From a virus (lineage: Duplodnaviria > Caudoviricetes): a stretch of 58,847 nt of DNA. Each line of letters opens with the position of its first letter. Position 1 is the stretch's first letter. The position numbers and the translations under genes were made by a program. Of the stretch, positions 1 through 54,280 are shown piece by piece. The DNA is taken from IMG/VR virus record IMGVR_UViG_3300014613_000029, positions 1 through 58,847 of that record, one strand, 5' to 3'. The notes under the pieces are model-generated. The model ran no database searches, was not told where the DNA came from, and was given only the letters and a program-made list of their open reading frames with translations.

Positions 1-113
1 TCGACATCATCAACAAGAAAGACAAGAGTTTTTCCAAAACCCATATCTTGATAAAATTCAACGATGACAAATTGTTTTCCCTTGAGTAATGGAACTAATA
101 AAGAATAGACCAT
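1..113 (-). CDS. 5' part of a 65-aa hypothetical protein spanning the window junction (continues 58847..58763)
   Basis: GGAGG RBS then ATG at 113. Reads MVYSLLVPLLKGKQFVIVEFYQDMGFGKTLVFLVDDV-D-WLLVDSSVENIPDEIYFPFINLLEEAK* when the ends are joined. Confidence 0.7.
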   Translation of the reverse strand, partial: MVYSLLVPLLKGKQFVIVEFYQDMGFGKTLVFLVDDV

Positions 114-122
114 AAAACCTCC

Positions 123-244
123 ATATAACAATTAGATTCAGTGGACGGCGAGCAAGCACCTTTATGACGCTTGGACTATCCATGGTAAAGGTTGAGCCCT
201 TTCGTCCCTTTCGGCATCGCCGCCACTGATCTAAGGCGTTATGC
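123..244 (+). repeat. attC-like recombination site 1
   Basis: ATATAAC-AATTA-GATTCAGT-GGAC-GGCG ... CGCC-G-CCACTGAT-CTAAGGC-GTTATGC. Imperfect palindrome with AAC/GTT ends and unpaired bases in one arm. Confidence 0.8.
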
Positions 245-409
245 AATAGAATCTAAAAACCTTTGTGCTTTTTTAATACTCGCAAAAGTATAAGGCATCA
301 TAGTGATAACAGGACCGAAATCACTGGGTGATAGAAATCCTTTATTGCTTTTTATTGCCCACCAAACTACTCCAGACCATGAAGCAACGGGGACGATTTT
401 GTATTTCAT
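239..409 (-). CDS. Cassette-borne hypothetical protein (56 aa, MKYKIVPV...)
   Basis: GGAGG RBS at 414-418 and ATG at 409. The TAA stop lies inside the GTTA core of attC1. Confidence 0.7.
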   Translation of the reverse strand: MKYKIVPVASWSGVVWWAIKSNKGFLSPSDFGPVITMMPYTFASIKKAQRFLDSIA

Positions 410-427
410 AAGACCTCCTAAAAAATC

Positions 428-516
428 GCATAACAACCAGCTTGACACCGACTGGTGATAGCCAGTTGGCTAAAAAGGTTACTCACTGCCCCAGCGGGTT
501 AGCCGGAGCGTTAGCC
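428..516 (+). repeat. attC-like recombination site 2
   Basis: GCATAAC-AACCAGCTTGACACCGACTGG ... CCAGCGGGTTAGCCGGAGC-GTTAGCC. Confidence 0.7.
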
Positions 517-744
517 CACAAATGGGCGATCTACATCCAATCTCTGGGGCTGTAGAGGTTTATTAAACGTAAGCATTCTCAGCCATATTCTGCCATTAAT
601 AAGTAACTTGAATCGTTCTTTCCAAGTCAATTGCCAACAAGATATTACCGTGCCATCATCCCCTTTCCATGCGGGCAGGGGAATATATTCTGGTTGATTT
701 TCTGCAAAAGTTACATTAGCTTCTTTAAACTTAACCGGTTTCAT
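511..744 (-). CDS. Cassette-borne phage-type hypothetical protein (77 aa)
   Basis: AGGAGG RBS. The stop lies in the GTTA core of attC2. The QPEYxPLPA / SCWxLTWxER / LTFNKPLQP pattern resembles a recurrent small phage protein family (recalled, not searched). Confidence 0.8.
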   Translation of the reverse strand: MKPVKFKEANVTFAENQPEYIPLPAWKGDDGTVISCWQLTWKERFKLLINGRIWLRMLTFNKPLQPQRLDVDRPFVG

Positions 745-761
745 TGATGCCTCCTTTTGTG

Positions 762-885
762 GGCTAACAAATCATTGGAGTTGACGGCCAATGGGCGGGG
801 TGACCTGCGTTCCCGCAGTACGCTTCATCAGCAGGTGAGTCATTCACGTATGACCACTGGCCGCCACTTACCTCAGTCGTTATGT
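762..885 (+). repeat. attC-like recombination site 3
   Basis: GGCTAAC-AAATC-ATTGGAGT-TGAC-GGCC ... GGCC-G-CCACTTAC-CTCAGTC-GTTATGT. Box spacing matches the classical attC layout. Confidence 0.8.
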
Positions 886-889
886 TGAA

Positions 890-1105
890 TTAAGTTCTTT
901 TTCCGCAGTGCTTACATTCCTTTCCCAATTCAAACCAATAGCATCCTTTCATGTTTGCTCTGGTATATGTAATAAAAATACCTTGCTCACATTTCACACC
1001 GCCTTCATAGTGAATACAGGTTGGGCAGATCCAACCATCAACGGTTGGAGACTGTTCATAAATTATATCTTCGAGGGTTGTTATATTCCTTTCTCCTGTT
1101 CCCAT
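890..1105 (-). CDS. Cassette-borne Cys-rich hypothetical protein (71 aa)
   Basis: AGGAGG RBS preceded by a GTTATAA core-like site (1123-1117, minus strand). CxxC motifs. Confidence 0.7.
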   Translation of the reverse strand: MGTGERNITTLEDIIYEQSPTVDGWICPTCIHYEGGVKCEQGIFITYTRANMKGCYWFELGKECKHCGKRT

Positions 1106-1148
1106 AAAATCCTCCTTTATAACTTCCGCCCCCTACCCACCTCATCGT

Positions 1149-1712
1149 TTAATGAAAAAACTCACTATGCGTCGGTGGATTTAGAAGTATAATACCTTTA
1201 AGCTTCGTTACCACTGCCTCAACGCATGGACTCTTTACTCCTCTCATTACCATACAGAGATGCATACCTTCTACACAACAGCCTACTCCTTGGGGTTTTA
1301 ACTTCTCTTCTAAAAAGGCGCAGATCATACCCGGAAGATCCTCTTGAAGAGGAAGGAAGGTTATGAAGTAGTTAGCAAGCTCAGGGAGCTTACTCAAACC
1401 AACTGCAAGACCTCTTGGAATATAACCAATGCGAAAGGTATAACGTACCGGTAGAAGGTGGTGTGGACAGAAGCCCCATACCACGTGGTTTTTGACGACC
1501 ATCATCTCATTACACTCGGTTGTAAATACAGTAAGAACCGGTTCCTTTACGTCGAAAAACTCTTTCCACATTCGCTCGATGCGTTCTGGTGTTCCATCGA
1601 AGTTTGGATTGTTCAGCTTGTGAATCCTGAGGATTCGTCTGATGGCTTGTTGCATCGTTGAAGGTTCTCCTTTCGTTTTATTCTCTTCCTCCATATCTAA
1701 CTTCTGCCTCAT
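1149..1712 (-). CDS. folE: GTP cyclohydrolase I
   Basis: TPERIERMW, CPHHLLP, GLSKL, LQE and HLCMVMRGV motifs. True start may be 1694. Confidence 0.95.
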   Translation of the reverse strand: MRQKLDMEEENKTKGEPSTMQQAIRRILRIHKLNNPNFDGTPERIERMWKEFFDVKEPVLTVFTTECNEMMVVKNHVVWGFCPHHLLPVRYTFRIGYIPRGLAVGLSKLPELANYFITFLPLQEDLPGMICAFLEEKLKPQGVGCCVEGMHLCMVMRGVKSPCVEAVVTKLKGIILLNPPTHSEFFH

Positions 1713-1896
1713 CTATTTTACTTCCCCAATAATCTTGCTCGGCTCTGGTTACAAGTTTATAAGAATCTGCTTTATCCAAGAACTTACTAACAACCTCTTC
1801 TATATCTTCTTCATCTTCTTTAGCTAACCCTTCTCTAACCATCTGGTTAAATATGATTTCTGTAAATAACTCTGGGTTATGACTCCAATAGCTCAT
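1678..1896 (-). CDS. Hypothetical protein
   Basis: GAGG RBS; packed in the minus-strand operon. Confidence 0.6.
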   Translation of the reverse strand: MSYWSHNPELFTEIIFNQMVREGLAKEDEEDIEEVVSKFLDKADSYKLVTRAEQDYWGSKIDEAEVRYGGRE

Positions 1897-2059
1897 CTTT
1901 GGCCTCCTCTGTTACTATTTGTTTTGTAATCGGCAGCCTAATCGCTTGAAAGTCAAACATAGCTCTCTCAGGGAATCCTCTTGTATTTCTAAACCATTCT
2001 CCTTTCATTGGACTCCTAACTTCTCCAGTGTCTTCATATATTATCTTTATTTCCTTCAT
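1877..2059 (-). CDS. Hypothetical protein (likely start MKEIK)
   Basis: AGGAG upstream; operon context. Confidence 0.5.
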   Translation of the reverse strand: MKEIKIIYEDTGEVRSPMKGEWFRNTRGFPERAMFDFQAIRLPITKQIVTEEAKDELLES

Positions 2060-2282
2060 CTTCTTTCTCCTTCCGTTCTGGGTTAAGCTTAAAGTCAAGA
2101 GGAAGCTTGTTAACCTTCTTCCACTCGAACATTGCCTCTTTAAGAACTTGGCCGAATCTTATCATCTCAGAGGCAGTAAGAATGAAGAGCAGTCTGTGAT
2201 CTGCGATTGGCCAGCAGACTTCTTCATCATCTTCATAGAACTCTACACACTCCTCATCAATGCTAAAGGTAAAGGTTCTCAT
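2034..2282 (-). CDS. Hypothetical protein
   Basis: AAGGAG RBS; operon context. Confidence 0.55.
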   Translation of the reverse strand: MRTFTFSIDEECVEFYEDDEEVCWPIADHRLLFILTASEMIRFGQVLKEAMFEWKKVNKLPLDFKLNPERKEKEDEGNKDNI

Positions 2283-2718
2283 CGTCTCTCCTTTGAGCTC
2301 GGTGATGGGCTCTAAGGCTTCTCTTTAAGACGCCTTTCTCTTTCACCATGTTGAATGCTTTCCACGCAGAGTACTTCCACATTCTCTCTACCTTTTCAAT
2401 CCAGTAGAGAGGAAGTTCGTAAGTGTAACGCTTTGAGTTTACTAAGACTGTGATTTGATCTGGGTTGTGAGTCCAGCTTAAAATTATGGGTGGTGTAGGC
2501 TTTCTATTTTGTAGTATTACTGAGTCGATAACCTCGCCGCAACCTGTACACCTCAGGCCCTCATACTTTTCGAGAGCACTTTCTGTTTTAGGAGGGTAGA
2601 AGGTTTCTTTAATTAGAAGTCCTTGGCATTTAGAACACCTCATCTCAACCTCCAAGTAGATATTGCACCTATAGTAGCACAAGTCCAACCGAGCATAGCA
2701 CTCCAGTTTCTGTCCCAT
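2263..2718 (-). CDS. Zn-ribbon hypothetical protein (likely start MRCSKC at 2643)
   Basis: CxxC...CxxC; GGAGG before the internal ATG. Confidence 0.55.
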   Translation of the reverse strand: MGQKLECYARLDLCYYRCNIYLEVEMRCSKCQGLLIKETFYPPKTESALEKYEGLRCTGCGEVIDSVILQNRKPTPPIILSWTHNPDQITVLVNSKRYTYELPLYWIEKVERMWKYSAWKAFNMVKEKGVLKRSLRAHHRAQRRDDENLYL

Positions 2719-2788
2719 GCGGGTAAGATAACGTTTAGTAAGAAGAGAGTAAGTAATATCCGATTAAACATTACTTTATACCTCCTTT

Positions 2789-3049
2789 CTACTTTATCCT
2801 CCAACACCTAACCCCTATGATTGTATTATCTTCTTTAATACACCTCGTCGTAAACTTTCGATCTCCGTATTTTGCTCGACTATTTCTTACAGTTCCCATA
2901 ATAGACGACTGAATTCTGTCAACTTCAACTCTTGATGAGCAAGGAACAAGGAAGGAATCTTCAACTTCCATTTCTAAAAAAGGGTAAAGCTTATTGCAAG
3001 TCCATTTTTGGGTTGATGGTATTGGAATAGTCTTTTCTATTTGGTACAT
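2789..3049 (-). CDS. Small phage protein with YPFxxMEVxDSF motif (putative DNA-binding)
   Basis: IEKTIPIP...YPFLEMEVEDSFLVP...IGVRCWR pattern typical of a common phage family. Confidence 0.6.
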   Translation of the reverse strand: MYQIEKTIPIPSTQKWTCNKLYPFLEMEVEDSFLVPCSSRVEVDRIQSSIMGTVRNSRAKYGDRKFTTRCIKEDNTIIGVRCWRIK

Positions 3050-3064
3050 AGCTTCTTTCCTTTC

Positions 3065-3137
3065 AAAAAAAAGCGAGGAGGGCTGGTACGTAATTTCGAC
3101 TTTACCCGAGGGCAGACGCCGCCAGTTCCCTCCCCCC
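3065..3137 (-). terminator. Rho-independent terminator with large loop
   Basis: Minus strand: GGGGAGGG(AA)CTGG pairs with CCAGCCCTCCTC, followed by T8. Confidence 0.6.
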
Positions 3138-3150
3138 TTTACTGTACAGA

Positions 3151-3654
3151 TTACTTCCCAAGAAAGGTCTTTGCTGAAATCTCAGTCCTTTCCTTACCCT
3201 TATCATCCATACCTTTTACCAGGACGAGCTTCCACTCTGTATCCTCGAAGGTCTCTTCGATCATCTCATGGAACTCCTCTTCGCTGTAGTCACCTACAGG
3301 AAGGCCTTCACCTTTTGCCTCTTTGTAAGCATCGTTCAGCTTAAAGAGTGCTTGAGGTTGAAGACTGTAAGTCTCAAGGACACGCTCACCAACAGTAGTT
3401 GGCTGATCCTCGTCGTCGTTCAGCTCATCAAGAACGGTGTACATAAAGGTTACCTTGGGTTGCTTTGTCTGTGAAAGACCCCAAGCAAGCTTTTCAAGAG
3501 AAGCTTTCGTTGTGCCTGTCATCACTTTGAGCTCTCCACCAAGTCCTTCAGGAATGTGAATGCTCATCCCTCCTTTGGAAGGTGCTTGCTCCTCACGAAC
3601 TTTACCTTTTCCTGCTGGTGCAGGCTTACTTTTACCTGGTCTGTTTACTGCCAT
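3151..3654 (-). CDS. Putative single-stranded DNA-binding protein (DUF669-like)
   Basis: Acidic OB-fold-like pattern; third gene of the Sak4-exonuclease-SSB module. Confidence 0.6.
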   Translation of the reverse strand: MAVNRPGKSKPAPAGKGKVREEQAPSKGGMSIHIPEGLGGELKVMTGTTKASLEKLAWGLSQTKQPKVTFMYTVLDELNDDEDQPTTVGERVLETYSLQPQALFKLNDAYKEAKGEGLPVGDYSEEEFHEMIEETFEDTEWKLVLVKGMDDKGKERTEISAKTFLGK

Positions 3655-3713
3655 TTTGAATTCCTCCTTTTTTGTCGCGTTGCGACTAAGTTTATAGTTG
3701 AGAGTCAGTGAAA

Positions 3714-4619
3714 CTAACTACCTTCTTCTTGTTCACCTCCCTTCTCTTTTGCTAAGTCCTCTTCAGCAGGTCGAATAGTATAGAAGTCTTTACGATTATC
3801 TGGTGTATCGTTGTCGCAAAGGATCTTAAACTCGCATGCCCTTCCATAGTTCAAGCAGGCTGAAGAGGGATAGAAATCTCCGCGCTGAATGTCTCGTAAA
3901 ACACCCTGGCAAGTTTCATGCATTCTCTCAATGCCAGGTCGACTAACTGGTGAGAAGGCACGTGGAAATTGAGGCACTTGGGTTTTGATAAGCATACTGT
4001 AAATTGTACCAGAGAGCTTCTCCTTGAAGTTCTCTTCAATGACGAAGTCATAGATCGCACCCTGCAAACCTGCCTTCAAGCCATTAAGGTAGTAGTTATC
4101 GATACGCTTTGCGGTCTTATACTCCAAGCGCCAAAGGCGCTCGTCTTGCGTGCGGGCCAAGCCATCAATACGTGCATAGAGATAGTAATCAGGCATTTCG
4201 TACTGAACGTGAACTTCACTACTAATAATCTTCAAAGGATCTTGTTCGTATTGCTTGATGTAGCCTATGACAAGGCGTGCCGCTTCACGAGCTATGGTGA
4301 GTGACTCATCTCCTTCGTTGAAGGAGTAAAGCTTTTGGACATACTGTTCAAGTTTCTCGATGTGTTCTTTGGTAAGCTTTCCATCATTCCAGAGCTTTAG
4401 CAAATCGTGTGCTACCGCACCAATCTGGAGATTCTCGTCCTTCTTCTTAGCTTGTAACCCGTCAATGTAATAGAGTTTATAACGTTGGTGGCAGTGTAGC
4501 CAAATCGAGAGTTTGTTATGAGAGAAGCGGATCTTTCCTTTTGAAGGGTTAGGATCGAAGGTTTCCAAGCTTCCATCTTTTACTTTGAGAGCTTTATGTC
4601 CTTTCTTTCTTTCAGGCAT
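3714..4619 (-). CDS. PD-(D/E)XK RecB/Cas4-like exonuclease
   Basis: FSHNKL..W..C, G...H, E, RIDGL, LEYKT, Q..IY and C..Y...C.F...C motifs. AGGAGG RBS before MPERKK. Confidence 0.85.
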   Translation of the reverse strand: MPERKKGHKALKVKDGSLETFDPNPSKGKIRFSHNKLSIWLHCHQRYKLYYIDGLQAKKKDENLQIGAVAHDLLKLWNDGKLTKEHIEKLEQYVQKLYSFNEGDESLTIAREAARLVIGYIKQYEQDPLKIISSEVHVQYEMPDYYLYARIDGLARTQDERLWRLEYKTAKRIDNYYLNGLKAGLQGAIYDFVIEENFKEKLSGTIYSMLIKTQVPQFPRAFSPVSRPGIERMHETCQGVLRDIQRGDFYPSSACLNYGRACEFKILCDNDTPDNRKDFYTIRPAEEDLAKEKGGEQEEGS

Positions 4620-4645
4620 CTTACCTCCTTTCGTTAACTTAGATG

Positions 4646-4930
4646 TTATAGTATGTTTCCGCAATGTGGACAGCCTGTGCCTACGATGTTGAGAAAACGA
4701 CTAACAGCACAGACGAAATAACCTTTTGTCCTATTCCACAATAGAACATCGTTATGATGAGAAGGATCGTATAAGTTCTCGGTAGGAAGGCGCATACCCA
4801 CCGCCTTCACAATCAGAACATCATTACTGAAAATTCCTCCGAGTGCGGACTCATGCATCACTACTCCTAATGGTAGTAGAGACATCGTTCCACTATGGTC
4901 AGCAAATTTTACAACATCTCCAACTTTCAT
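4646..4930 (-). CDS. Hypothetical protein
   Basis: MKVGDVV start with AGGAGG RBS. Confidence 0.6.
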   Translation of the reverse strand: MKVGDVVKFADHSGTMSLLPLGVVMHESALGGIFSNDVLIVKAVGMRLPTENLYDPSHHNDVLLWNRTKGYFVCAVSRFLNIVGTGCPHCGNIL

Positions 4931-5111
4931 CTTTTACCTCCTTTCTACGCAGCTGCATCCTTATTCCTAAGGATGTCCATTCTGATGAGGTTATCAGTTA
5001 CGCGATAAACCTTAATGATGTGCCCGTTAACAGCTTGCTCGACCTTTATCGTGCCTTGTTGGTTCCAAATGAACGTTAAGAGCTCGTTATACTTATCAAT
5101 AATTTCCTTCT

Positions 5112-5945
5112 TCACTTCTTACCTCCTTTCACCTTCGGCGAGGACTTCGCAAGCTCTTCCTTAAACAAGGTTGCAAAGTCACTCTCCTCTTCAGTGTCGA
5201 GGGCACGACTAGTCCGAGCCTCAGCCTTACCTACTGGCCGAGTCTCTACATAATAGATAGGCGAGCCCTCAGCAGGTATTTCAACCTTTGTATGATAAAT
5301 CTCTGTGAAGTAATCACCTACTTTGAAACGCATCGATCCTGCGATCTGGGGATAAATACCAACTACCCTACCTGTTTCTTCATCTCGATCTACCTGTTCG
5401 TGTGCGATGATGATAACGTGTTTGTACATGCCTTGGAGGCTTTGCAAAGTATGGAAGATCTCTTCAAGGTTGGAAGCCCAGGCTGCCCAATGATCACGTT
5501 CGAACTTTCCTTTATTTGTAAGAAAGAGAAGAAGTCGAGTGAGATGTTCCAGCAGGATAGTTAAGGAGTCAGGAGCAACAAGAACGGTGCAGTTATCAGG
5601 ATCCTTCTTGCCCGCTCGGTGAAGTTTTGAGAGCTCATCAATAATATCGACGAACTCTAAATAACCCTGCGGTTGTTTACTTGGAGGGTTCATTCCAAAC
5701 GAGCCCTTTACTACGATAATTCCTTTTACCCTGTCTCTCAAGGTTCCATCAAGGAGAGGTGATTTGATAGGTTGAACGATCCAAGAGCCCTCCTTGATGA
5801 AGGGCTGAAGGTTTTGCATGTCATGTGCTTTACCATCGACGTCGATGTGACGTACCTTGTGACCCATTTTGATTAGTGTTGTTGGTAAGGTTGTCTTACC
5901 GGTGCCAGGCCGGCCGTACAAGAATATAAAACTCGTAAAAACCAC
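5112..5945 (-). CDS. AAA_24 / Sak4-like ATPase recombinase
   Basis: YGRPGTGKTT Walker A, DSLT, IIIAHE; next to exonuclease and SSB. Confidence 0.85.
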   Translation of the reverse strand: MVFTSFIFLYGRPGTGKTTLPTTLIKMGHKVRHIDVDGKAHDMQNLQPFIKEGSWIVQPIKSPLLDGTLRDRVKGIIVVKGSFGMNPPSKQPQGYLEFVDIIDELSKLHRAGKKDPDNCTVLVAPDSLTILLEHLTRLLLFLTNKGKFERDHWAAWASNLEEIFHTLQSLQGMYKHVIIIAHEQVDRDEETGRVVGIYPQIAGSMRFKVGDYFTEIYHTKVEIPAEGSPIYYVETRPVGKAEARTSRALDTEEESDFATLFKEELAKSSPKVKGGKK

Positions 5946-5966
5946 CTCCTTTCCTTTATACTTTTA

Positions 5967-6152
5967 CTACTTACTTTTCTGCCAAGCTAAGTCACTTGAT
6001 CCTGGTTTTGCAAGTACTACTTCTTCATAGCCTGCTTTGGCCATCGTTACTTTTTTCCAATGATAAAGATAAACTGTCCCTAACCAAACAGCAACTATAG
6101 CTCCGGCTATTAAAGCTGTTAACCAGCAGAACATTCTTTGCTCCCCGTCCAT
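5967..6152 (-). CDS. Small membrane protein
   Basis: Single hydrophobic helix; GGAGG-type RBS. Confidence 0.6.
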   Translation of the reverse strand: MDGEQRMFCWLTALIAGAIVAVWLGTVYLYHWKKVTMAKAGYEEVVLAKPGSSDLAWQKSK

Positions 6153-29942: not shown

Positions 29943-30161
29943 ATGAGCAAGAACCTTCTGATAGGTCTAATTGCAGATACAAGGAACAGAGCATTAGAGA
30001 CGAGAGCTATTATAAAGCTTGTTGGAAAAGGGAAATATACGGAAGTCCAGGCCCTGTTCATGATAGATAGGGAAATGGTTAAAATCGATGAACTTTTGGC
30101 GGGATATGAGAAGGCATTAAGAGATTCCTCAATAAATGAAAGAGATATTTGGAATGAATAA
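29943..30161 (+). CDS. Hypothetical protein
   Basis: 72-aa ORF on the coding strand. Confidence 0.5.
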   Translation: MSKNLLIGLIADTRNRALETRAIIKLVGKGKYTEVQALFMIDREMVKIDELLAGYEKALRDSSINERDIWNE

Positions 30162-33451: not shown

Positions 33452-34383
33452 TGGCTACACTTTATACAGAGCTGATAAGACAAATAATGCTTAACCTCCA
33501 ACCAAGGAGCGATGGTGTCACTCGCTTAGCGGTTGAGAAAGCAATAAGTGATGCTCAGCGAATTATTGCCTCGGTTAAAGATTTCGACGAGTTAATGACT
33601 CTCGATACAACCAATGCTTTCACCGCAGTAATCTCCTCAGGAGAGATCTCAGTTGTTTTTGCAGCGACTGGGGATACAATCACCAGAGCAACCGGCTCCT
33701 TCGTAACTGATGGCTTTACAGCAGGAACTTCAATAACGACAGATGATGATGATAATCCTGGGCCGCTTACCATCCTGACTGTTACTGCCTTGGTAATCAC
33801 CGTACATGATGACTTGACAGACTCTACCAACACTGCTTGTACTATAACTCATAACAAGAGACTATATCACATCGAAGATGATCTAGATCTAACAAGACCT
33901 AAGGATATCTACTCAATCAGGCTGATGGATAGTGCTAATAGTAGAAAGCTCACCTACGTACCACCAAGAGAGCTTGACAGTAAGATTCCTTACACAGATC
34001 TAGTAGGAACTGGAAGGTCGTCTTGGTACACAGTGAGAGGACGCTATATCGAATTGTTTAGAATACCTGATGATGTCTATCCTCTTTACATCTCGTATAG
34101 CCAGTGGCCTGCTGCTGCTGACTTTACAGACTCAAGTGATGCAACTCCTTTCGAACGAATAGATCATGTCATAGTCTCGCTTGCTACTGATATGGCCTTA
34201 GCTAGTCTTGAAGGAGGCAGTGGAGATTGGTTTCAGAGAGCAAAGCAACTACTTGGTACAGCTGTAAGTGAGGAAGTAACGAGACCAGATCAATTACTTG
34301 TTGCTAGGCCTTTTCAATCTTCTAAGGTTGGACCGATCGGAGAGTATTGGAACAACCCATGGGTGAAGAGACAACCGGAATAG
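33451..34383 (+). CDS. Head-tail adaptor protein with an inserted Thr-rich domain
   Basis: TLYTELIRQI...AISDAQR...IELFRIPD..Y.L.I.Y adaptor pattern. Confidence 0.7.
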   Translation: MATLYTELIRQIMLNLQPRSDGVTRLAVEKAISDAQRIIASVKDFDELMTLDTTNAFTAVISSGEISVVFAATGDTITRATGSFVTDGFTAGTSITTDDDDNPGPLTILTVTALVITVHDDLTDSTNTACTITHNKRLYHIEDDLDLTRPKDIYSIRLMDSANSRKLTYVPPRELDSKIPYTDLVGTGRSSWYTVRGRYIELFRIPDDVYPLYISYSQWPAAADFTDSSDATPFERIDHVIVSLATDMALASLEGGSGDWFQRAKQLLGTAVSEEVTRPDQLLVARPFQSSKVGPIGEYWNNPWVKRQPE

Positions 34384-47778: not shown

Positions 47779-48258
47779 TCACTTTACCCACCTACAAGGC
47801 CTTTCATAACAATCAGGTTCAAGATAGCAGACCTTTTCTAAGCACTGTCTCATCTTTTCAGTCTGTCTAAAGGCTTCCTTTTGAGCTTTGTCCCAATCGA
47901 ACTCTTTTTCAAGTTTGTCAACCTCTTCCGAAGTTAGGTCTCTACCTTCTGGACATGAAGAGGGAGTAGAAATAGAAACAGAGTTCCTTCTAGGAGACTT
48001 CTTAGCTCTCAAGACACTACTCACCTGAGCTTTAGTTGTCTTCCTATCGTAATCATCCCATAGATTGGTAGTATGGATAACCTTACACACTTTATCAGCG
48101 TTATCGTTATGAGCCCAAAGCAGGTGGCCCGCTAACCAAACTCTTTCGTTATGAGTTGGGTGATGAGATGTAAGAATCTGTCTCATTTGTATGTTAGGCT
48201 TTTCTTGAATGAAGCTCTTTTTGATTACTTGTTTCCTCTTCATGTCCTTAGGACTCAC
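47779..48258 (-). CDS. Primase accessory (PriL-CTD/PriX-like helical) protein
   Basis: THNERVWLAGHL...WDDYDRKTTKAQVSSV resembles primase large-subunit C-terminal motifs. Confidence 0.45.
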   Translation of the reverse strand: MSPKDMKRKQVIKKSFIQEKPNIQMRQILTSHHPTHNERVWLAGHLLWAHNDNADKVCKVIHTTNLWDDYDRKTTKAQVSSVLRAKKSPRRNSVSISTPSSCPEGRDLTSEEVDKLEKEFDWDKAQKEAFRQTEKMRQCLEKVCYLEPDCYERPCRWVK

Positions 48259-48261
48259 TTC

Positions 48262-48597
48262 TTAACTCCTTTTCAGCCTCCTCCTTGCTTTCTCTACAGT
48301 AGTTTTACTCACACCATACTTCTTACAAAGCTCTTTTAGAGACATCTCTTCAAGATCGCTTTGTAAGAACTTCGTTTCTATCCTTCTCGGTCCTCCTCTC
48401 TTCTTAAGGTTGATGCCTGTCTTGAGAAGCTTCTCTCGAAGAGCAAAAGGACTTACTTCGCAGAGATCTGCAATCTGCTTGATGCTCATTGTGAGGTCGC
48501 AGTAACACTCAAACAATACCTCGTCTACGTCTTCTATATCTGCTAGCTGAGGTACTTTCATTCTAAGCTTTTCTATAGTACTACGCCAATATATCAC
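48262..48597 (-). CDS. Double HTH DNA-binding protein
   Basis: SIKQIADLCEVS and SLKELCKKYGVSKTTV. Confidence 0.75.
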   Translation of the reverse strand: MIYWRSTIEKLRMKVPQLADIEDVDEVLFECYCDLTMSIKQIADLCEVSPFALREKLLKTGINLKKRGGPRRIETKFLQSDLEEMSLKELCKKYGVSKTTVEKARRRLKRS

Positions 48598-49022
48598 CTA
48601 TCTAACACCTCCCTTCTGAACTTCCATCTCTCAAGCTGAGCCTGTTTCATTTTGGCCTTAGTTTCTAAAGAGTGTGTCTTTCCTCGCATTGCCCTACCCA
48701 TTCCTTTCTTCGCTTCTTCTGAAAATCGTCTTCCTGTATTTGCTTTTCTTATTCCCTCTTTATGCTTTTCAGAAATATGTTTACCTGTATGATGAAAGCT
48801 TGTATGCTCTGCTCTAGTTATTAGCTTTAGATTGGAGAAATTATCATTAAGAGAATTGCCATCAATGTGATGAACTATCTCATTCTTAGTTAAGAATCTG
48901 TTAAGGTGCTCTTCCATAAGAGCTCTAGCGTATGATTTAACTCCGCCTGCTGACCCTATGTAGAGATGTCTGTCCTTCTTATTATACCAAAATGCCATTA
49001 TGCTTCTCTCCTCTCTTGCCAA
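48594..49022 (-). CDS. HNH homing endonuclease with NUMOD3 repeats
   Basis: VHHIDGNSLND..SNL...EH; GKHISEKHK, GRRFSEEAK, GKTHSLETK repeats. Confidence 0.85.
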   Translation of the reverse strand: MAREERSIMAFWYNKKDRHLYIGSAGGVKSYARALMEEHLNRFLTKNEIVHHIDGNSLNDNFSNLKLITRAEHTSFHHTGKHISEKHKEGIRKANTGRRFSEEAKKGMGRAMRGKTHSLETKAKMKQAQLERWKFRREVLDR

Positions 49023-49149
49023 GCTATCTTCTTAAGACTTAAATCTAATGAATAAAAATGTCATTGATGTTATCTTCATCCTCAAGCTGAGGGATACGGG
49101 CTTTTAGTAAGGTAACTATTTTCTTCCAATAGATCATCTCTATTCTCCT

Positions 49150-50019
49150 TTATGAACGAAATCCAAGAAAAGTAGGAAATCGTGGTTTGTCAACTGATCC
49201 ACACTCCTGGTGCTTGTACTTAATAATCTTTCCTCTAAAGGTCTCCTGGTTAAGCCAGATCTCCTTTCTCTGTGCTTCATCCAGACCGGACCCAACACTA
49301 AAGACAACTCCCGTTTCGATGTCCTTAACGACGAAGGCTCCTAACATTCCACTAGGCTGAAGGTTAGCCTGATGACTACTACGCTTTGCAAGACCGAAGG
49401 CATCTTTTGTTTGAGGGTTGAGGTTGATCATTCTCTGTTCAAAGTCAAGGATGATGGCTTCGCCATCTTCAAATCTCTTCAGCTTTAACAAGTAGCCTTC
49501 CTTTGTTGTCGACCGACCTTCTTTATAAGGTCCGTCATGCGAGCGAATCATCACACCTTCATAGCCATCCTTAAGGACTTCATCCTCATACTTGAGGAGA
49601 TCATCTTCATTACCAATGGTACGGAAAGTAAGAATAGACACATCACTAGCTTTAGGAAGAGCATTAGCTATTGAAGTGATCCTGTCGTAGTAAGCTCTCT
49701 TCCCTTCTTCAAAGCCACCAAACCAATCAAAGATCCAGTATTCGACTTTGCTAATATCAGAGTACTCACCCATTACAGCTGAGCTTATCTCGTTAAAGGC
49801 TATTGATGGAATGACAAGCTCTCCGTCTACTCCAGCTGGAAGCCATCTGAACTTCTTATTGATCTCTCGATTGCGAAAGGGCTTGAAGTTACGCGAGATG
49901 AGAGACCCGTTTGTTTCGAGTTTAAGAGCACGAATGCCATCAAGTTTAGGGGTGCAAAGAACGGGGTACTTAAGAGTTGATAAGTCTGCTTTGCCAGCAA
50001 GCATTGGTCTTTTAATCAT
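49150..50019 (-). CDS. lig: ATP-dependent DNA ligase (minimal type)
   Basis: PKLDGIR, DGEL, IFD, EGVMIR, LLKLKRFED, PRFP. Confidence 0.95.
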   Translation of the reverse strand: MIKRPMLAGKADLSTLKYPVLCTPKLDGIRALKLETNGSLISRNFKPFRNREINKKFRWLPAGVDGELVIPSIAFNEISSAVMGEYSDISKVEYWIFDWFGGFEEGKRAYYDRITSIANALPKASDVSILTFRTIGNEDDLLKYEDEVLKDGYEGVMIRSHDGPYKEGRSTTKEGYLLKLKRFEDGEAIILDFEQRMINLNPQTKDAFGLAKRSSHQANLQPSGMLGAFVVKDIETGVVFSVGSGLDEAQRKEIWLNQETFRGKIIKYKHQECGSVDKPRFPTFLGFRS

Positions 50020-50122
50020 CCTGGCTCACCTCCCTTCACGAGCTATCTGCAAGACCGACATGGCTAGAACACCTATGAAGAATCCAATGAAGATACCTAC
50101 AGTAAGAGTTACCCAGAACATT

Positions 50123-51376
50123 TTATTTTACCTCCTTTCCTTTAAGACTAAAAACCCAGTTTCGTGTACCATCGCCCTTCTTCTCGCCTGAGTCTTCGAC
50201 GCAAAGAACACCACGATTACGAAGGATGTTAATCGCTTCGTAGAACTGCCTCTCTCCCTGGGAAAGGTACCTATACGTCCTATTAAGCAGGTCCATCTCA
50301 CTAAGCTTACCATGAATCTTTAAAAGATCCTCTATATCAGAAACGATCTGCATTCTTGGATGGGTAGAGAGCTGTTCAATCCTTGAGCCTACCTCCTTCC
50401 TAAGACAATAAATTATCTCTTTAGCTTTAAGTACATCCGGCCCATCAAGCTTTAGTCTTCCCTTATCGATCGCTAAGAGCATTGCTATACGAAGTGTCTG
50501 CTCACTCTCTCTTTCTCGATAAGCATCTTCCTGAACATTACCTGTAGGCTGACCTTCAGTGTAGCAAATATCATACTCTTTAAGGCCGGAAGTTGACCAT
50601 TCAAACTTACCTTTAACTTCTTCAAAAGCTCGAAGTCCTTCTACAAGAGATTTCCAACTAGAGCCTGAAGGCTTTTTAGGAAGTGTAACACGTTTAAAGT
50701 AGTTAATTGGCATCTCTACAAGAATGAAGCGGCTCATAAAACCGCCTGTGAAGGCGTCTTGCGGAAGCATATGTTGAAGCCATTGAGGTGTCGAGCCTCC
50801 TAGAATAGAGATGCAGTTATTCTTAAGAACTTCCTTCCCACGGCCAATTGTCTCGCCTCGCCATACTTCACGGAAGTCGTAGAGATCGGTTATTAAGGAG
50901 ACCATGCCTACGTTATACTGTTGCTTGCCGAAGAACACTGAAATCTCTGGTGCCTTGATCAGGCCTGTTGCATCCCGTGGGCCGATACGGATTCGCTCAC
51001 CTGAGGTTTGCGGAGCACTAAGATTCCTAACCAGAGTTTCAGGAGTAAGCTTATCTGCCAGAACGCGAGCGTTCGGCGTAGCCTGCTCGAGGCAGTTGCA
51101 GGCCATGTTAATACATGCTGTTTTGTGCCCTCTACCTGGAGGAGCAAGAAGGATTACCCAGGGGTTAGGGAAGAGTTTGGGCAGTAAGCCTTCATCGCCC
51201 CGCTGGATCCATACCTTGTTACTTATCACGGTACCCATTACACAGCAGGCACTGAAGAAACGAAAACGAGGGCACACTTCAAGGCCGCTTGTAAAGTGAA
51301 GGTATTTACCTAACCAACCTTCCTTTGGAAGAAACTCTTCAAGAGAGTCGAACTCTTTTTCATTTCGTGAGGTCAT
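50123..51376 (-). CDS. DUF3987-type P-loop ATPase (putative replicative helicase)
   Basis: LLAPPGRGHKT, TPETL, LITDLYD, ISILGGSTP, GGFMSRF; C-terminal wHTH. Confidence 0.75.
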   Translation of the reverse strand: MTSRNEKEFDSLEEFLPKEGWLGKYLHFTSGLEVCPRFRFFSACCVMGTVISNKVWIQRGDEGLLPKLFPNPWVILLAPPGRGHKTACINMACNCLEQATPNARVLADKLTPETLVRNLSAPQTSGERIRIGPRDATGLIKAPEISVFFGKQQYNVGMVSLITDLYDFREVWRGETIGRGKEVLKNNCISILGGSTPQWLQHMLPQDAFTGGFMSRFILVEMPINYFKRVTLPKKPSGSSWKSLVEGLRAFEEVKGKFEWSTSGLKEYDICYTEGQPTGNVQEDAYRERESEQTLRIAMLLAIDKGRLKLDGPDVLKAKEIIYCLRKEVGSRIEQLSTHPRMQIVSDIEDLLKIHGKLSEMDLLNRTYRYLSQGERQFYEAINILRNRGVLCVEDSGEKKGDGTRNWVFSLKGKEVK

Positions 51377-51514
51377 TAAACCTCCTTCCTAACCATCTCT
51401 TCCTTCTCCACCACTCTCGAAGCTCCCAGCTTAGCTTTATTAAGAAGTAGGTAAACCAGGCTGAGAGAAGAAGAAGGTAGAAGAGGAGTGCTCCTTTTAT
51501 TAAGCTCATAACTT

Positions 51515-51733
51515 CTACCTCCTCCTAGCATCATAAATCACTTGTGTAGGCAGGTATTTCAATATAAAGTTCCATTCTTGTAGAGAAATGTCAGCAACGG
51601 TTGCGTTGTTACTGCCCTCAAATATTATCTTTATTCTTATCATGTCTGGAGTACTTTCGTTAGTTTTACTAATAAGAGCAACTTTGTCTATATCCAACAG
51701 CATCTCAGTTACATCATCAAATCTTATGATCAT
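51515..51733 (-). CDS. Hypothetical protein
   Basis: GAGGAG RBS. Confidence 0.55.
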   Translation of the reverse strand: MIIRFDDVTEMLLDIDKVALISKTNESTPDMIRIKIIFEGSNNATVADISLQEWNFILKYLPTQVIYDARRR

Positions 51734-51912
51734 AGCTTAGACTCCTCTCGATTTTGTTTGATATCTCGACTTATCTCTTCTTGAAGCTTTTTTGTAGTTT
51801 CGTTCATATACTTATGACGTAAGGTATCTAAGGCAAGAAGGATTTCCCGTTTACTCCAGACACCCCGGTTACTCTCATTAAAGAAGTTTCTAATAAGCGT
51901 AAATATGTCCAT
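51730..51912 (-). CDS. Hypothetical protein
   Basis: AGGAGG RBS. Confidence 0.55.
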   Translation of the reverse strand: MDIFTLIRNFFNESNRGVWSKREILLALDTLRHKYMNETTKKLQEEISRDIKQNREESKL

Positions 51913-51922
51913 TTAACCTCCT

Positions 51923-52552
51923 TTAAACTAAGTCTAGAGGATCTTTTACTCCCGCTTCCCTAAACCCTTTATCCCGGTTAAGACAAGAGTTACATTTATG
52001 ACATGGTTTGTTCTCCCCGCGATAACAACTCCATGTCTTCTCAAAAGGAACTTTTAAGCTCAAGCCCAGCTGAATGATTTGAGCCTTTGTTAAGTGAAGC
52101 AACGGTCCATGTATAGTTACTTTATAGTTCATTCCTACGCAGAGAGCATCTTGCATAAGACCAAGAAATGCTGGACGGCAGTCCGGATAACCTCCAAAGT
52201 CTATAATGTTCCATCCTCCTACGATGTGCTTAGCCTTAATCTCTAAGGCAATACCTCCTGCGTAGGCAAGCTGTATGATATTTCTTGCTGGGACGTAAGC
52301 AGTACCCTTTACTTCCTTTCTTCCTTTTAGAAGACAGCTACTACACCAATCCATGTCTAGCACTACCTCTTTAAGAGAATAAGAAGAAAATAAGCTGCAT
52401 ATTTCACTTGCATACTTTTTCTCCTTAGTATGCTTTTGATTATAGTTAAACCAAACCGGGTATACTTCCCACCCTTGTTCATAAACTGCCCAAGCCATAG
52501 CTACTGCTGAGTCCATTCCTCCACTAATTAAGCAAATGCATTTATCTTTCAT
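51923..52552 (-). CDS. queC: 7-cyano-7-deazaguanine synthase
   Basis: SGGMDS, YVPARN, YPDCR, TWSCY...CxxCxxC; ATG 52552 after AAGGAG. Confidence 0.95.
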   Translation of the reverse strand: MKDKCICLISGGMDSAVAMAWAVYEQGWEVYPVWFNYNQKHTKEKKYASEICSLFSSYSLKEVVLDMDWCSSCLLKGRKEVKGTAYVPARNIIQLAYAGGIALEIKAKHIVGGWNIIDFGGYPDCRPAFLGLMQDALCVGMNYKVTIHGPLLHLTKAQIIQLGLSLKVPFEKTWSCYRGENKPCHKCNSCLNRDKGFREAGVKDPLDLV

Positions 52553-53042
52553 TACACTCTCCTTTTGATATGCCATATAGTAGTGAAGCTGTTGCATATA
52601 CTGCCACGAGTCTAAGTCTCTCCTCAAGACTGGTAGGTGTGTCGTTTTTGTTTATTCTAACCGGCACCTCCATTAGAATATCTCCACAATCTATTTCCTC
52701 TGTTACTTTATGAATTGTTACGGCGGTCCATTCAACACCGGCCTTGAGGGCCTGTATATGAGGGTCCTTACCTTTGAAGGCCGGCAGTTTGCCTGGATGG
52801 ACGTTAAACGTAGGGATGTGTTCAAAGAGTAAATTGGGAATGTGAGACATAAACCCTAAGGAAATGACTATGTCGAAGTTTTGTTCTCTTAGCCAAGACC
52901 AGTTTTGTTTTGGGTAAAGTATCCAGGCTACACCTGGAGGTGGTGCGTGTAACGATACTGCAGTGTGTACAGGGTATAAGGCATGCAGTAACTTCAACGC
53001 TTTACCAGTTCTAGAACTAAGGACTAGTACCCTCATTTTCAT
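52542..53042 (-). CDS. dpdN: PurN-like formyltransferase (putative preQ1 formyltransferase)
   Basis: NVHPGKLPAFKG, TIHKVTEEIDCGDI; sits between dpdA-like and queC. Confidence 0.75.
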   Translation of the reverse strand: MKMRVLVLSSRTGKALKLLHALYPVHTAVSLHAPPPGVAWILYPKQNWSWLREQNFDIVISLGFMSHIPNLLFEHIPTFNVHPGKLPAFKGKDPHIQALKAGVEWTAVTIHKVTEEIDCGDILMEVPVRINKNDTPTSLEERLRLVAVYATASLLYGISKGECNER

Positions 53043-53901
53043 GCTCCCTTATTAACCGTTCTAGGTAGAACTTTGCTTTCTTTAAATCTTCAAGGCCACC
53101 TTTAAACCTATAACGGCAGATGTATTTCAATACTGCACTTGGAAGGTAAGGCAAGTTCTGATCCTGTATAAAATCTAACACTTCGATACTTCCTTGCGTA
53201 TAGTGCTTAGGGTGGTTGACCTGATCTTCTTCATCTAAGAGATGCCTCAACTCTTGTATATTCTTCTTAGCTAATTGCAACTCCTTTATACTTAAAGTTA
53301 AGTTAAAGAACCCGGGAGTAGAGTGTAGATGAGGACAACCATTTGACACCCAGTCTTCCATTGTTTGTCCTAGTAAGGCTAACTTAATAGGCATGGAGGT
53401 ATCGCATGTTGCTGGCTTAGCTATCTTAAGCTCTTGTATGGATAGTAAGCCTAAGAAGTGACACTCTTCGAAACGTTTAAGTTTCTCTCTAGTACAATAC
53501 CTAAAGTCATAAGGCACGGCGAAGTGCTTAACTTCATAAGACTTAAAGTGCCCGATCCAGTCAGGGTGATGTATAATGACGCAAATCTTCTCAGGAGGTA
53601 CTCCGCAGTCTTGAAGCTTAAGAAAAGAGTTAAGCATGGTTTCTTGATTCCAGTCAGGATGGTCAGGTGCAACAACGTAGGTAGGCTGTAGCTCAGTATA
53701 GAGCTTAGACAGTAGAGAACAGCTATCCGGTTGCTTAAGCTCGTTCGTGGAGTTGTCGAGCCATAACTCTTTCTTAGTTCTTAGCATAAACTCTTTGTAC
53801 TCTGGATATTTGTACAAAAAGCTTAAGGAGAAGTGAAAGTCTTGAAGGTGCTCAAAAGCCTCTAAATGCTTTATAGGAACTTCAAATGAAAGTTTAATCA
53901 T
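53017..53901 (-). CDS. dpdA: DpdA-like (TGT-fold) deazaguanine transglycosylase fused to a DUF3310 domain
   Basis: LWLDNS, VAPD, HFLG, CDTS motifs; C-terminal VNHPKHY...VLKYICR...[14 protein letters not shown]. Confidence 0.65.
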
Positions 53902-54280
53902 AGATTACTCCTTTCGCACATACTGTAATTCCCCCTCTTGATACGGAAGCTACAAGTACTTCTACCTGGCATTCTAAGACTTCGTGTAGGTCATGTGCTA
54001 TGTGCTGGGCAAGCTTCTCTGTGAATGCTCCGTAGTTGCGAAAACTTACACAGTAAAGCTTTAGAGACTTACTCTCTATACACCTTTCCTTCGGATAGTA
54101 AGTTATTGTAATTTCAGAATAGTCGGGTTGCCCTGTTATTGGACATAGTGAGGTGAACTCTTTGTTTACTAACGTTACTTCACGTACACCAGGATTCTCA
54201 AACCATTCAAGTAGCCCTTTATCAGGCCCTGAGTAGCTAAACTCTTTTTTAACCTGTAAAGCTTTAAATTGTTTTGTCAT
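53894..54280 (-). CDS. queF: PreQ0 reductase (QueF type I)
   Basis: [13 protein letters not shown] and the QueF motif ESKSLKLY. Confidence 0.92.

Follow-up and report, generated by a model that had tools for sequence, protein, structure and literature searches.

A putative integrase-less array of integron-type cassettes at one end of a groundwater phage contig

Clusters of attC sites lacking an integron integrase (CALINs) have been reported in virulent and temperate phages, 17 of them in 10,705 genomes, and the integrase IntI1 recombined five of six tested phage sites, including two from Tetrasphaera phage TJE1 (Qi et al. 2023, PMC9892861). Phage-borne attC clusters are a recently recognised route by which cassettes could pass between bacteria and phages. 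Here we analyse the left end of IMGVR_UViG_3300014613_000029, a linear IMG/VR contig of 58,847 nucleotides (nt) that was examined whole and is called the window below. We hypothesize, with a probability of roughly two thirds, that three hairpins and the small genes between them form a true integron-type cassette array without an integrase, i.e. a CALIN, at the end of the incomplete contig of a tailed groundwater phage, and that its units are exchanged by site-specific crossover with an enzyme that is most likely a host integron integrase (IntI). Since phage CALINs are already in print (PMC9892861), the array adds a member to a known class; the unexpected part is its reversed polarity.

The TJE1 CALIN resembles the locus in having co-oriented attC sites between small single open reading frames (ORFs) in a tailed phage without an integrase, and our covariance model R2 finds both sets of sites (20.9-33.7 bits in TJE1, 23.1-38.6 bits in the window). 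However, the attC top strand is the gene-sense strand in TJE1 and the antisense strand in the window, whose sites are also long (89-124 nt versus 50-60 nt). Class 1 integron cassettes such as aadA1, dfrA12 and cmlA1 (PMC5027507, PMC4889954) share with the window the layout R''-5 nt-L''(8)...L'(7)-5/6 nt-R' with AAC and GTT triplets, extrahelical bases at positions 16 and 23/24, a 6-bp stem from the first to the last of these bases in two-base sites, and complementarity of cores across the cassette. Unlike them, the window has no tyrosine recombinase, its ORFs lie antisense to the top strand, and its cargo consists of phage-type small genes rather than resistance genes. The PeSL elements (early promoter plus terminator stem-loop) of T4-type phages are, like the hairpins of the window, intergenic stem-loops that flank small accessory genes in a variable region with modular shuffling (PMC2839356, PMC4122927); whereas these combine promoter and terminator motifs and their exchange is thought to be homologous, the hairpins described here have attC anatomy, and a consensus scan of positions 1-2000 found neither a promoter-like site on the minus strand nor a terminator-like one.

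Hairpins of attC type between small genes

The left end of the window is laid out as follows, where R2 scores, geometry scores and fold z-scores are those explained below.

3..113, minus strand: ORF0, small gene truncated by the contig end, with a GGAGG ribosome-binding site after GTTATAT (ORF list)
123..244, plus (top) strand: E1, attC-type site of 122 nt; R2 38.6 bits, E 1.8e-8; geometry 14/14; DNA fold z -3.96
239..409, minus strand: ORF1, 56 amino acids, putative cassette gene (ORF list)
428..516, plus strand: E2, weak or atypical attC-type site of 89 nt; full-length R2 alignment of only 8.3 bits
511..744, minus strand: ORF2, 77 amino acids, from a widespread family of small phage proteins (phrog_11885, E 1e-4)
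762..885, plus (top) strand: E3, attC-type site of 124 nt; R2 23.1 bits, E 6e-4; geometry 10/14
890..1105, minus strand: ORF3, 71 amino acids, orphan with CxxC...CxxC motifs (ORF list)
1117..1123, minus strand: lone GTTATAA core (TTATAAC on the plus strand), which precedes the ribosome-binding site of ORF3
1149..1712, minus strand: folE (GTP cyclohydrolase I; Pfam PF01227, E 1.9e-34), flanking backbone gene belonging to a 7-deazaguanine module

The initial annotation had described E1, E2 and E3 as imperfect palindromes running from TAAC to GTTA, with attC-like box spacing and unpaired bases, and both the sequence and a repeat finder bear this out: every element begins with xxxTAAC and ends with GTTAxxx. 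Their R'' and R' boxes are inverted cores carrying the AAC and GTT triplets, namely ATATAAC (123-129) and GTTATGC (238-244) in E1, GCATAAC (428-434) and GTTAGCC (510-516) in E2, and GGCTAAC (762-768) and GTTATGT (879-885) in E3. Between the R boxes and the L'' and L' boxes lie unpaired stretches of about 5 nt (AATTA, AACCA, AAATC) and about 6 nt (TAAGGC, CGGAGC, TCAGTC), as is also the case in 14 real sites. The latter were parsed from 16 attC sites that we read behind annotated cassette genes in nine class 1 integron regions from plasmids. Read in gene direction, these real sites open with an R'' that ends in AAC. After 5 nt of spacer comes an L'' of 8 nt whose fourth place holds an extra base, followed by two pairs and an extra A; beyond a variable centre lie an L' of 7 nt, 5-6 nt of spacer and GTT. 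This layout agrees with the rule of Nivina et al. (2016, PMC5027507), under which the extrahelical bases sit on the top-strand AAC arm, at positions 16 and either 23 or 24 and in some sites at 20 as well. The hairpins of the window have their extra bases on the same arm of the top strand: T138 and A145 in E1 and G777 and A784 in E3 (positions 16 and 23), and T443, A447 and A451 in E2 (positions 16, 20 and 24). In all three the last extra base corresponds to the canonical T of the bottom strand. Crossover is predicted between G238 and T239 in E1, G510 and T511 in E2, and G879 and T880 in E3.

Two covariance models were used to ask how closely the hairpins resemble attC. R1, built from nine 60-nt attC sites, recovered four of seven held-out real sites. 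R2, built only from 13 genuine class 1 integron attC sites, served as a stand-in for the IntegronFinder model and was run on both strands of the window with filters off. Its best match is E1 and its second best is E3 (762-886), both on the plus strand, and the next best reaches 16.3 bits. In the controls, R2 gave no match at E<=1 across 45 loci of bacteria and archaea totalling 412 kb, matches in plasmid integron loci were known attC sites only, and in TJE1, whose CALIN was published with three attC sites according to a figure legend (PMC9892861), R2 found three sites, directly behind orf1, orf2 and orf3. A rigid scan for attC geometry gave 14 of 14 pairs for E1 and 10 of 14 for E3, where a score of at least 12 is expected 0.03 times per window and one of at least 10 is expected 1.86 times. 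When each strand was folded as DNA, a check that the initial annotation had recommended, E1 clearly beat its shuffles (z -3.96 on the plus strand, -3.44 on the minus strand), whereas E3 was weak to marginal (z -1.87 and -1.22) and E2, as detailed below, did no better than chance. Taken together, E1 and E3 pass a reasonable surrogate of the attC-model test and E2 passes on geometry only; the proposal that the elements are attC-type sites is supported, with two of the three significant in R2 and all three showing canonical extrahelical geometry. Twelve phage matches aligned to R2 have 89% paired cells and compensatory changes in 15 of 21 pairs, which 0-1 of 500 shuffles reach; because the alignment was fitted to the model, this statistic leans toward structure.

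The cores on either side of a gene are complementary, as proposed: 510-522 pairs with 756-768 at 13 of 13 positions and 238-247 with 425-434 at 9 of 10. The repeat finder returned the same relationship as arms of 16 nt (510-525 and 753-768, 94% complementary, including the 13/13 stretch) and of 10 nt (238-247 and 425-434, 90%). The core at the start of a cassette is thus complementary to the R'' of its own attC, and core pairing beyond the triplet amounts to 6/7 and 7/7 across the genes versus 2, 3 and 1 inside the hairpins. Single ORFs alternate with the elements in the way first described. Within a few bases after each GTTA core, in gene direction, lies a ribosome-binding site of the AGGAGG type, and the stops of ORF1 and ORF2 fall inside a TAAC core, such that the last codons of ORF2 (F V G stop) make up the core TTTGTGGGCTAA. 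A consensus scan of positions 1-2000 revealed neither a sigma-70-like site on the minus strand nor an intrinsic terminator.

E1 and E3 are 518 nt apart and both lie on the plus strand, which is the arrangement called a CALIN under the rule of Cury et al. 2016 (PMC4889954). There is no integron integrase nearby: no PF00589 match at E<=1 was found in the 58.8-kb record, whose end the array touches, and no match to PF00239 or PF01797. Two significant co-oriented sites without a tyrosine recombinase on the contig thus uphold the proposal of an integrase-less attC cluster. The locus is not a complete integron, which would have intI, attI and Pc beside the array: the window encodes no tyrosine recombinase, no search was aimed at attI or Pc, and the contig stops short of the array's upstream end. 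The further claim that the phage itself has no integrase holds for the contig and does not extend to the whole phage, since CheckV puts the record at about 77% completeness; with the array running up to the left end of a partial record, an integrase could lie farther out.

Exchange of modules among related arrays

ORF2 has many relatives: 138 homologues, 436 confirmed viral stretches (of which the best 80 were fetched) and 45 genome loci. In its nearest relatives (L005-L009) the gene has no flanking hairpins, and the hairpin frame is therefore not part of the ORF2 gene family. R2 was run on 83 viral loci and gave matches in only three. The matches in other viral contigs are as follows, with the orientation of the attC top strand relative to the genes.

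L011 (IMGVR_UViG_3300031873_000003), 1178-3763, at a contig end: larger and cleaner cassette array; seven matches, antisense
L011, near 18.6 kb: lone match, antisense as judged from ORFs only
L014: one match, antisense
G002, 33734-33792: near-symmetric site before an ORF2 homologue; scores on both strands, ambiguous
G002, 41136-41257 (L141, 1137-1258): attC-type site of 122 nt, 23.4 bits, sense, behind a small gene

The L011 contig (93.8 kb, 100% complete by CheckV) contains no tyrosine recombinase, no serine recombinase and no Y1 transposase. Its seven array matches, at 21-47 bits, lie between consecutive small genes, and an eighth hairpin, seen by inspection, precedes the ORF2 homologue, at whose end of the array there is a lone core. 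The sites are textbook attC of 55-64 nt, with a top-strand extra base C at position 16 in six of seven and A at position 23 in all seven. Cores again pair better across genes than inside hairpins (mean 4.86/7 versus 2.75; permutation p 0.008), and one unit (2646-2774) has no ORF at all and cores that are complementary at 7/7. Two of the genes have PHROGs matches, one to a DNA methyltransferase (phrog_799) and one to an RNA-binding protein (ASCH-like); DNA methyltransferase cassettes have also been reported in phage CALINs (PMC9892861), so that the two have this cargo in common.

L011 and L014 share a module of 341 nt, 92% identical, that consists of a hairpin and the ORF2 homologue. Its borders are exactly AAC...AAC, the first AAC standing before the hairpin, and both flanks are unrelated. 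To judge from these sequences, this is the look expected of a cassette exchanged by crossover in the AAC triplet, and the related contigs thereby offer sequence-level evidence of cassette exchange between unrelated phages at the AAC/GTT core.

We also compared window positions 1-2600 with Logan contigs of three groundwater runs (X2, X3 and X5), none of them the probable source run. Pieces of the region occur there with other neighbours, and the breaks at 129, 428, 514/517, 759 and 889 are core edges. One contig of run X2 connects position 1114, across 8 additional nucleotides, with an E3-like site whose first position is 759; in run X3 a different site precedes 889; and in run X5 the E2 segment has the highest summed contig depth and different neighbours on both sides. 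Parts of the window without contig cover in X3 and X5 are not evidence of absence. The expectation that gene content at such sites varies between related sequences is thus supported, by the L011/L014 module and by the groundwater contigs. The folE relatives L002-L004 (42-47% identity) have no attC matches within about 5 kb, and, being too distant, say nothing on variation of gene content at the folE locus.

Polarity of the sites and rival explanations

The reading that we prefer would have the locus comprise at least three cassettes, each a small gene plus an attC-type hairpin. Read on the plus strand, the units would be ...ORF0 plus E1, ending at G238; ORF1 plus E2, 239-510; and ORF2 plus E3, 511-879, so that in gene direction each hairpin would stand before the gene with which it travels. 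Units would be exchanged by site-specific crossover inside the AAC/GTT triplet of a folded single strand. As the contig does not encode the enzyme, this would have to act in trans and would most likely be a host IntI; exchange would be ongoing in this phage.

Several observations weigh against this hypothesis. R1 found none of the three hairpins at E<=10, and E2, for all its full-length alignment to R2 on the plus strand, gave no match in the window-wide search; the covariance-model check proposed in the initial annotation, made here with stand-in models, thus has a mixed outcome, with significant R2 matches for E1 and E3 and none for E2. R2 itself missed three of four held-out real sites (estX, dfrA14 and arr-3), finding only dfrA27, at 24.5 bits. 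E2 as DNA does not fold better than shuffles (z 0.18 and -0.75), the L box of E3 is paired at only 4 of 7 positions, and the first extrahelical base, read on the bottom strand, is A, A and C in E1, E2 and E3, where G is usual. Exact-pattern scans for the E1/E3 arm consensus and an E2 arm in IMG/VR, and for an E2 arm in JGI metagenome contigs, returned no other copy. Breaks in the Logan contigs also occur inside E3 (796, 799 and 861) and on both sides of hairpins, as homologous exchange between similar hairpins would give as well, and De Bruijn contigs can break or join at repeats; given the internal E3 breaks and this behaviour at repeats, these contigs support modular variation at hairpins and no particular mechanism. 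Finally, both significant R2 matches and the weak E2 lie on the plus strand and the genes on the minus strand, unlike canonical cassettes, in which an ORF on the attC top strand is followed by its attC.

This reversed polarity, which the initial annotation did not mention, recurs. R2 was built from top strands, which run in gene sense in class 1 cassettes (16 of 16) and at the TJE1 sites (3/3). By contrast, 11 of the 12 unambiguous matches in the four viral contigs have their top strand antisense to the genes. The exception is the sense site of G002, so polarity is not uniform among these phages. The L011/L014 module keeps its hairpin before the gene, as antisense polarity predicts. We considered the alternative that the minus strand is the functional top strand, which would restore canonical polarity and make GTTATAA the array start, and ranked it lower: the R2 matches are on the plus strand only, the extra bases lie on the plus-strand AAC arm, and the hairpin of the L011/L014 module stays before its gene. 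One observation, the run X2 break at 129, agrees better with the minus-strand alternative. In Polaribacter phage P12002L, positions 30005-30059 (L140) give a weak R2 match (13.1 bits, E 0.81) in antisense orientation; it lies between two methyltransferase genes of the minus strand, and its extra base is on the plus-strand AAC arm. Antisense polarity may therefore occur in an already published phage CALIN too, but the match is too weak to count. Full-text literature searches and the orientation passages of PMC9892861 yielded no description of antisense-polarity phage arrays; the strand tables for the 17 phage CALINs of that paper, which the search did not cover, may contain such cases.

We tentatively suggest, as a possibility that we would not rate as probable, that these are hairpin-first cassettes, in which the gene-sense strand would be the recombining (bottom) strand and the site would precede the gene, in an array suited to fast turnover rather than to expression from Pc, and for which the host enzyme is maybe not a classical IntI. 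In Vibrio, bottom strands on the lagging-strand template are reported to favour folding and excision of cassettes (PMC13108822); if transcription and replication of the phage are co-directional, its recombinogenic strand would lie on the lagging-strand template. Were reversed polarity general, cassettes of this pool would not be expressible from a bacterial Pc promoter after capture, which would point to selection for recombination rather than expression, and it could change models of phage hyper-variable regions and of integron cassette genesis.

With the plus strand as top strand, E3 is the last complete site and GTTATAA at most a truncated R'' box. The initial annotation had taken this lone core for the edge of the array; its location on the minus strand (1123-1117), 25 nt past the folE stop, is confirmed, whereas the role is not established. 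No hairpin surrounds it on either strand in 1100-1160, and R2 has no significant match there, the nearest listed being an alignment of 8.8 bits (E 9) at 1029-1050. At most the core would be a remnant R'' box, not a canonical array start, and it may be a chance match. ORF3 would accordingly either begin the backbone or belong to a cassette whose attC is absent at this locus. Integrase-mediated insertion of cassettes outside att sites has been described (bioRxiv 10.1101/2022.09.11.507474) and is a possible route of cassette entry into a phage genome at a simple site; one end of the array would then retain a lone core, as it does in L011. In the window the relevant array end lies beyond the contig, and GTTATAA near folE is on the wrong side given the polarity.

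Could the hairpins instead be conserved intergenic repeats, between which genes are shuffled by homologous recombination in the manner of PeSL elements, with no integron integrase involved? The 3' arms of E3 and E1, as identified by the repeat finder, are 84% identical over 25 nt; environmental variants keep the arms of E3 and change its centre, with loose ends at the three internal breaks named above, and breaks fall on both hairpin sides; none of the three recombinase families searched for is encoded in the window; and T4-type phages provide the precedent (PMC2839356, PMC4122927). What defines a PeSL, however, is an early promoter and a terminator stem-loop within the repeat, and the consensus scan of 1-2000 found zero terminator-like sites and no promoter-like site on the gene strand. 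Nor would this explanation lead one to expect the canonical spacing and extrahelical bases of attC, a match to a model of bacterial attC, better core pairing across a gene than within a hairpin, or module borders exactly on AAC, and we regard it as unlikely. We also think it improbable that a different structure-specific recombinase, encoded by the host or a helper element, uses the sites, for example a short Xer-like enzyme that lacks the IntI-specific domain and acts on the gene-sense strand. Recombination of that strand would explain the reversed polarity, which sets the four viral contigs apart from class 1 cassettes and TJE1, and E1 and E2 lack the usual G at the first extrahelical base. 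Against this, the sites of L011 are textbook attC (bottom-strand G at 16 in 6/7 and T at 23 in 7/7), one G002 site has sense polarity, IntI1 acted on most of the phage attC sites tested by Qi et al. (PMC9892861), and no candidate enzyme was found.

Coincidental attC likeness of structures that act at the RNA level (mRNA stabilisers, processing sites or translational insulators), or that arose by chance, appears very improbable to us. Hairpins do stand in every intergenic gap of a co-transcribed row of genes, E2 and E3 fold no better than shuffles, and the absence of an Rfam family match leaves room for an undescribed RNA element. Yet a DNA attC model applied to all 58.8 kb has its two best matches exactly here, both on one strand, a geometry score such as that of E1 is expected only 0.03 times per window, and both the sharing of an AAC-bordered module and the alternative neighbours at cores are signatures of DNA exchange. 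An integron-type array served by a host IntI thus remains our preferred reading.

The phage record and its gene content

The window encodes a terminase, a DNA ligase, a PD-(D/E)XK nuclease and an AAA ATPase (PF13479, AAA_24) and, as we judge from reading the sequence, a PolA-like protein; together with a 7-deazaguanine module these identify it as a tailed double-stranded DNA phage. Ten sequencing runs from seven studies, every one labelled groundwater metagenome, contain sequence of the first 1,400 nt. More than half of the words sampled from this part are present in only two of the ten, one of which is probably the source run. The array thus adds an uncultivated groundwater phage with a 7-deazaguanine DNA-modification module to the short list of phages carrying attC clusters. 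From position 1 to about 7,000 every gene is on the minus strand, and the order downstream of folE is ORF3, E3, ORF2, E2, ORF1, E1 and ORF0.

The 7-deazaguanine (queuosine-precursor) module is divided between both ends of the contig, occupying 47779-58847 and, with folE, 1149-1712. Besides folE, the region includes:

51923-52627: QueC
52542-53042: protein with a formyltransferase domain
56691-57341: QueE-like radical SAM protein
57972-58766: QueD domain fused behind a coiled-coil N-terminus (the Pfam match is the C-terminal part)

The array had been placed between folE and queD on a circular map. Pfam confirms both genes; the record itself is linear and incomplete, and a circle is not shown. 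A Logan contig extends the window by 237 nt beyond its left end, and another assembly measures 59,600 nt. Here as in L011, the array occupies the extreme end of the contig (positions 1-123 in the window and 1-1232 in L011). Population variation within the array may have broken the assemblies at this point, or the array may sit near the genome ends.

A search with Rfam at gathering thresholds and with ARAGORN found no RNA family and no tRNA in the window, and blastn of positions 1-6000 against 50,697 phage records gave no match. ORF0 and ORF1 have no match in Pfam or PHROG. ORF3 matched only itself in a word-indexed search of 5.8 billion proteins, and the pattern method gave no confirmed IMG/VR relatives for ORF1 or ORF3. 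ORF1 has one homologue, of 64 amino acids (58% identity, E 1.7e-8). It also matches six separate stretches of a 1297-residue protein (P0123, 27% identity, E 1.2e-8), and because of these six matches it may be a single copy of a repeat domain.

Outside the array, the third-best R2 match in the window (16.3 bits, E 0.055) is a 33-nt perfect-ended palindrome at 38600-38632, ACCTAAC...GTTAGGT, which scores on both strands. It is too short for L boxes and is probably unrelated to the array.

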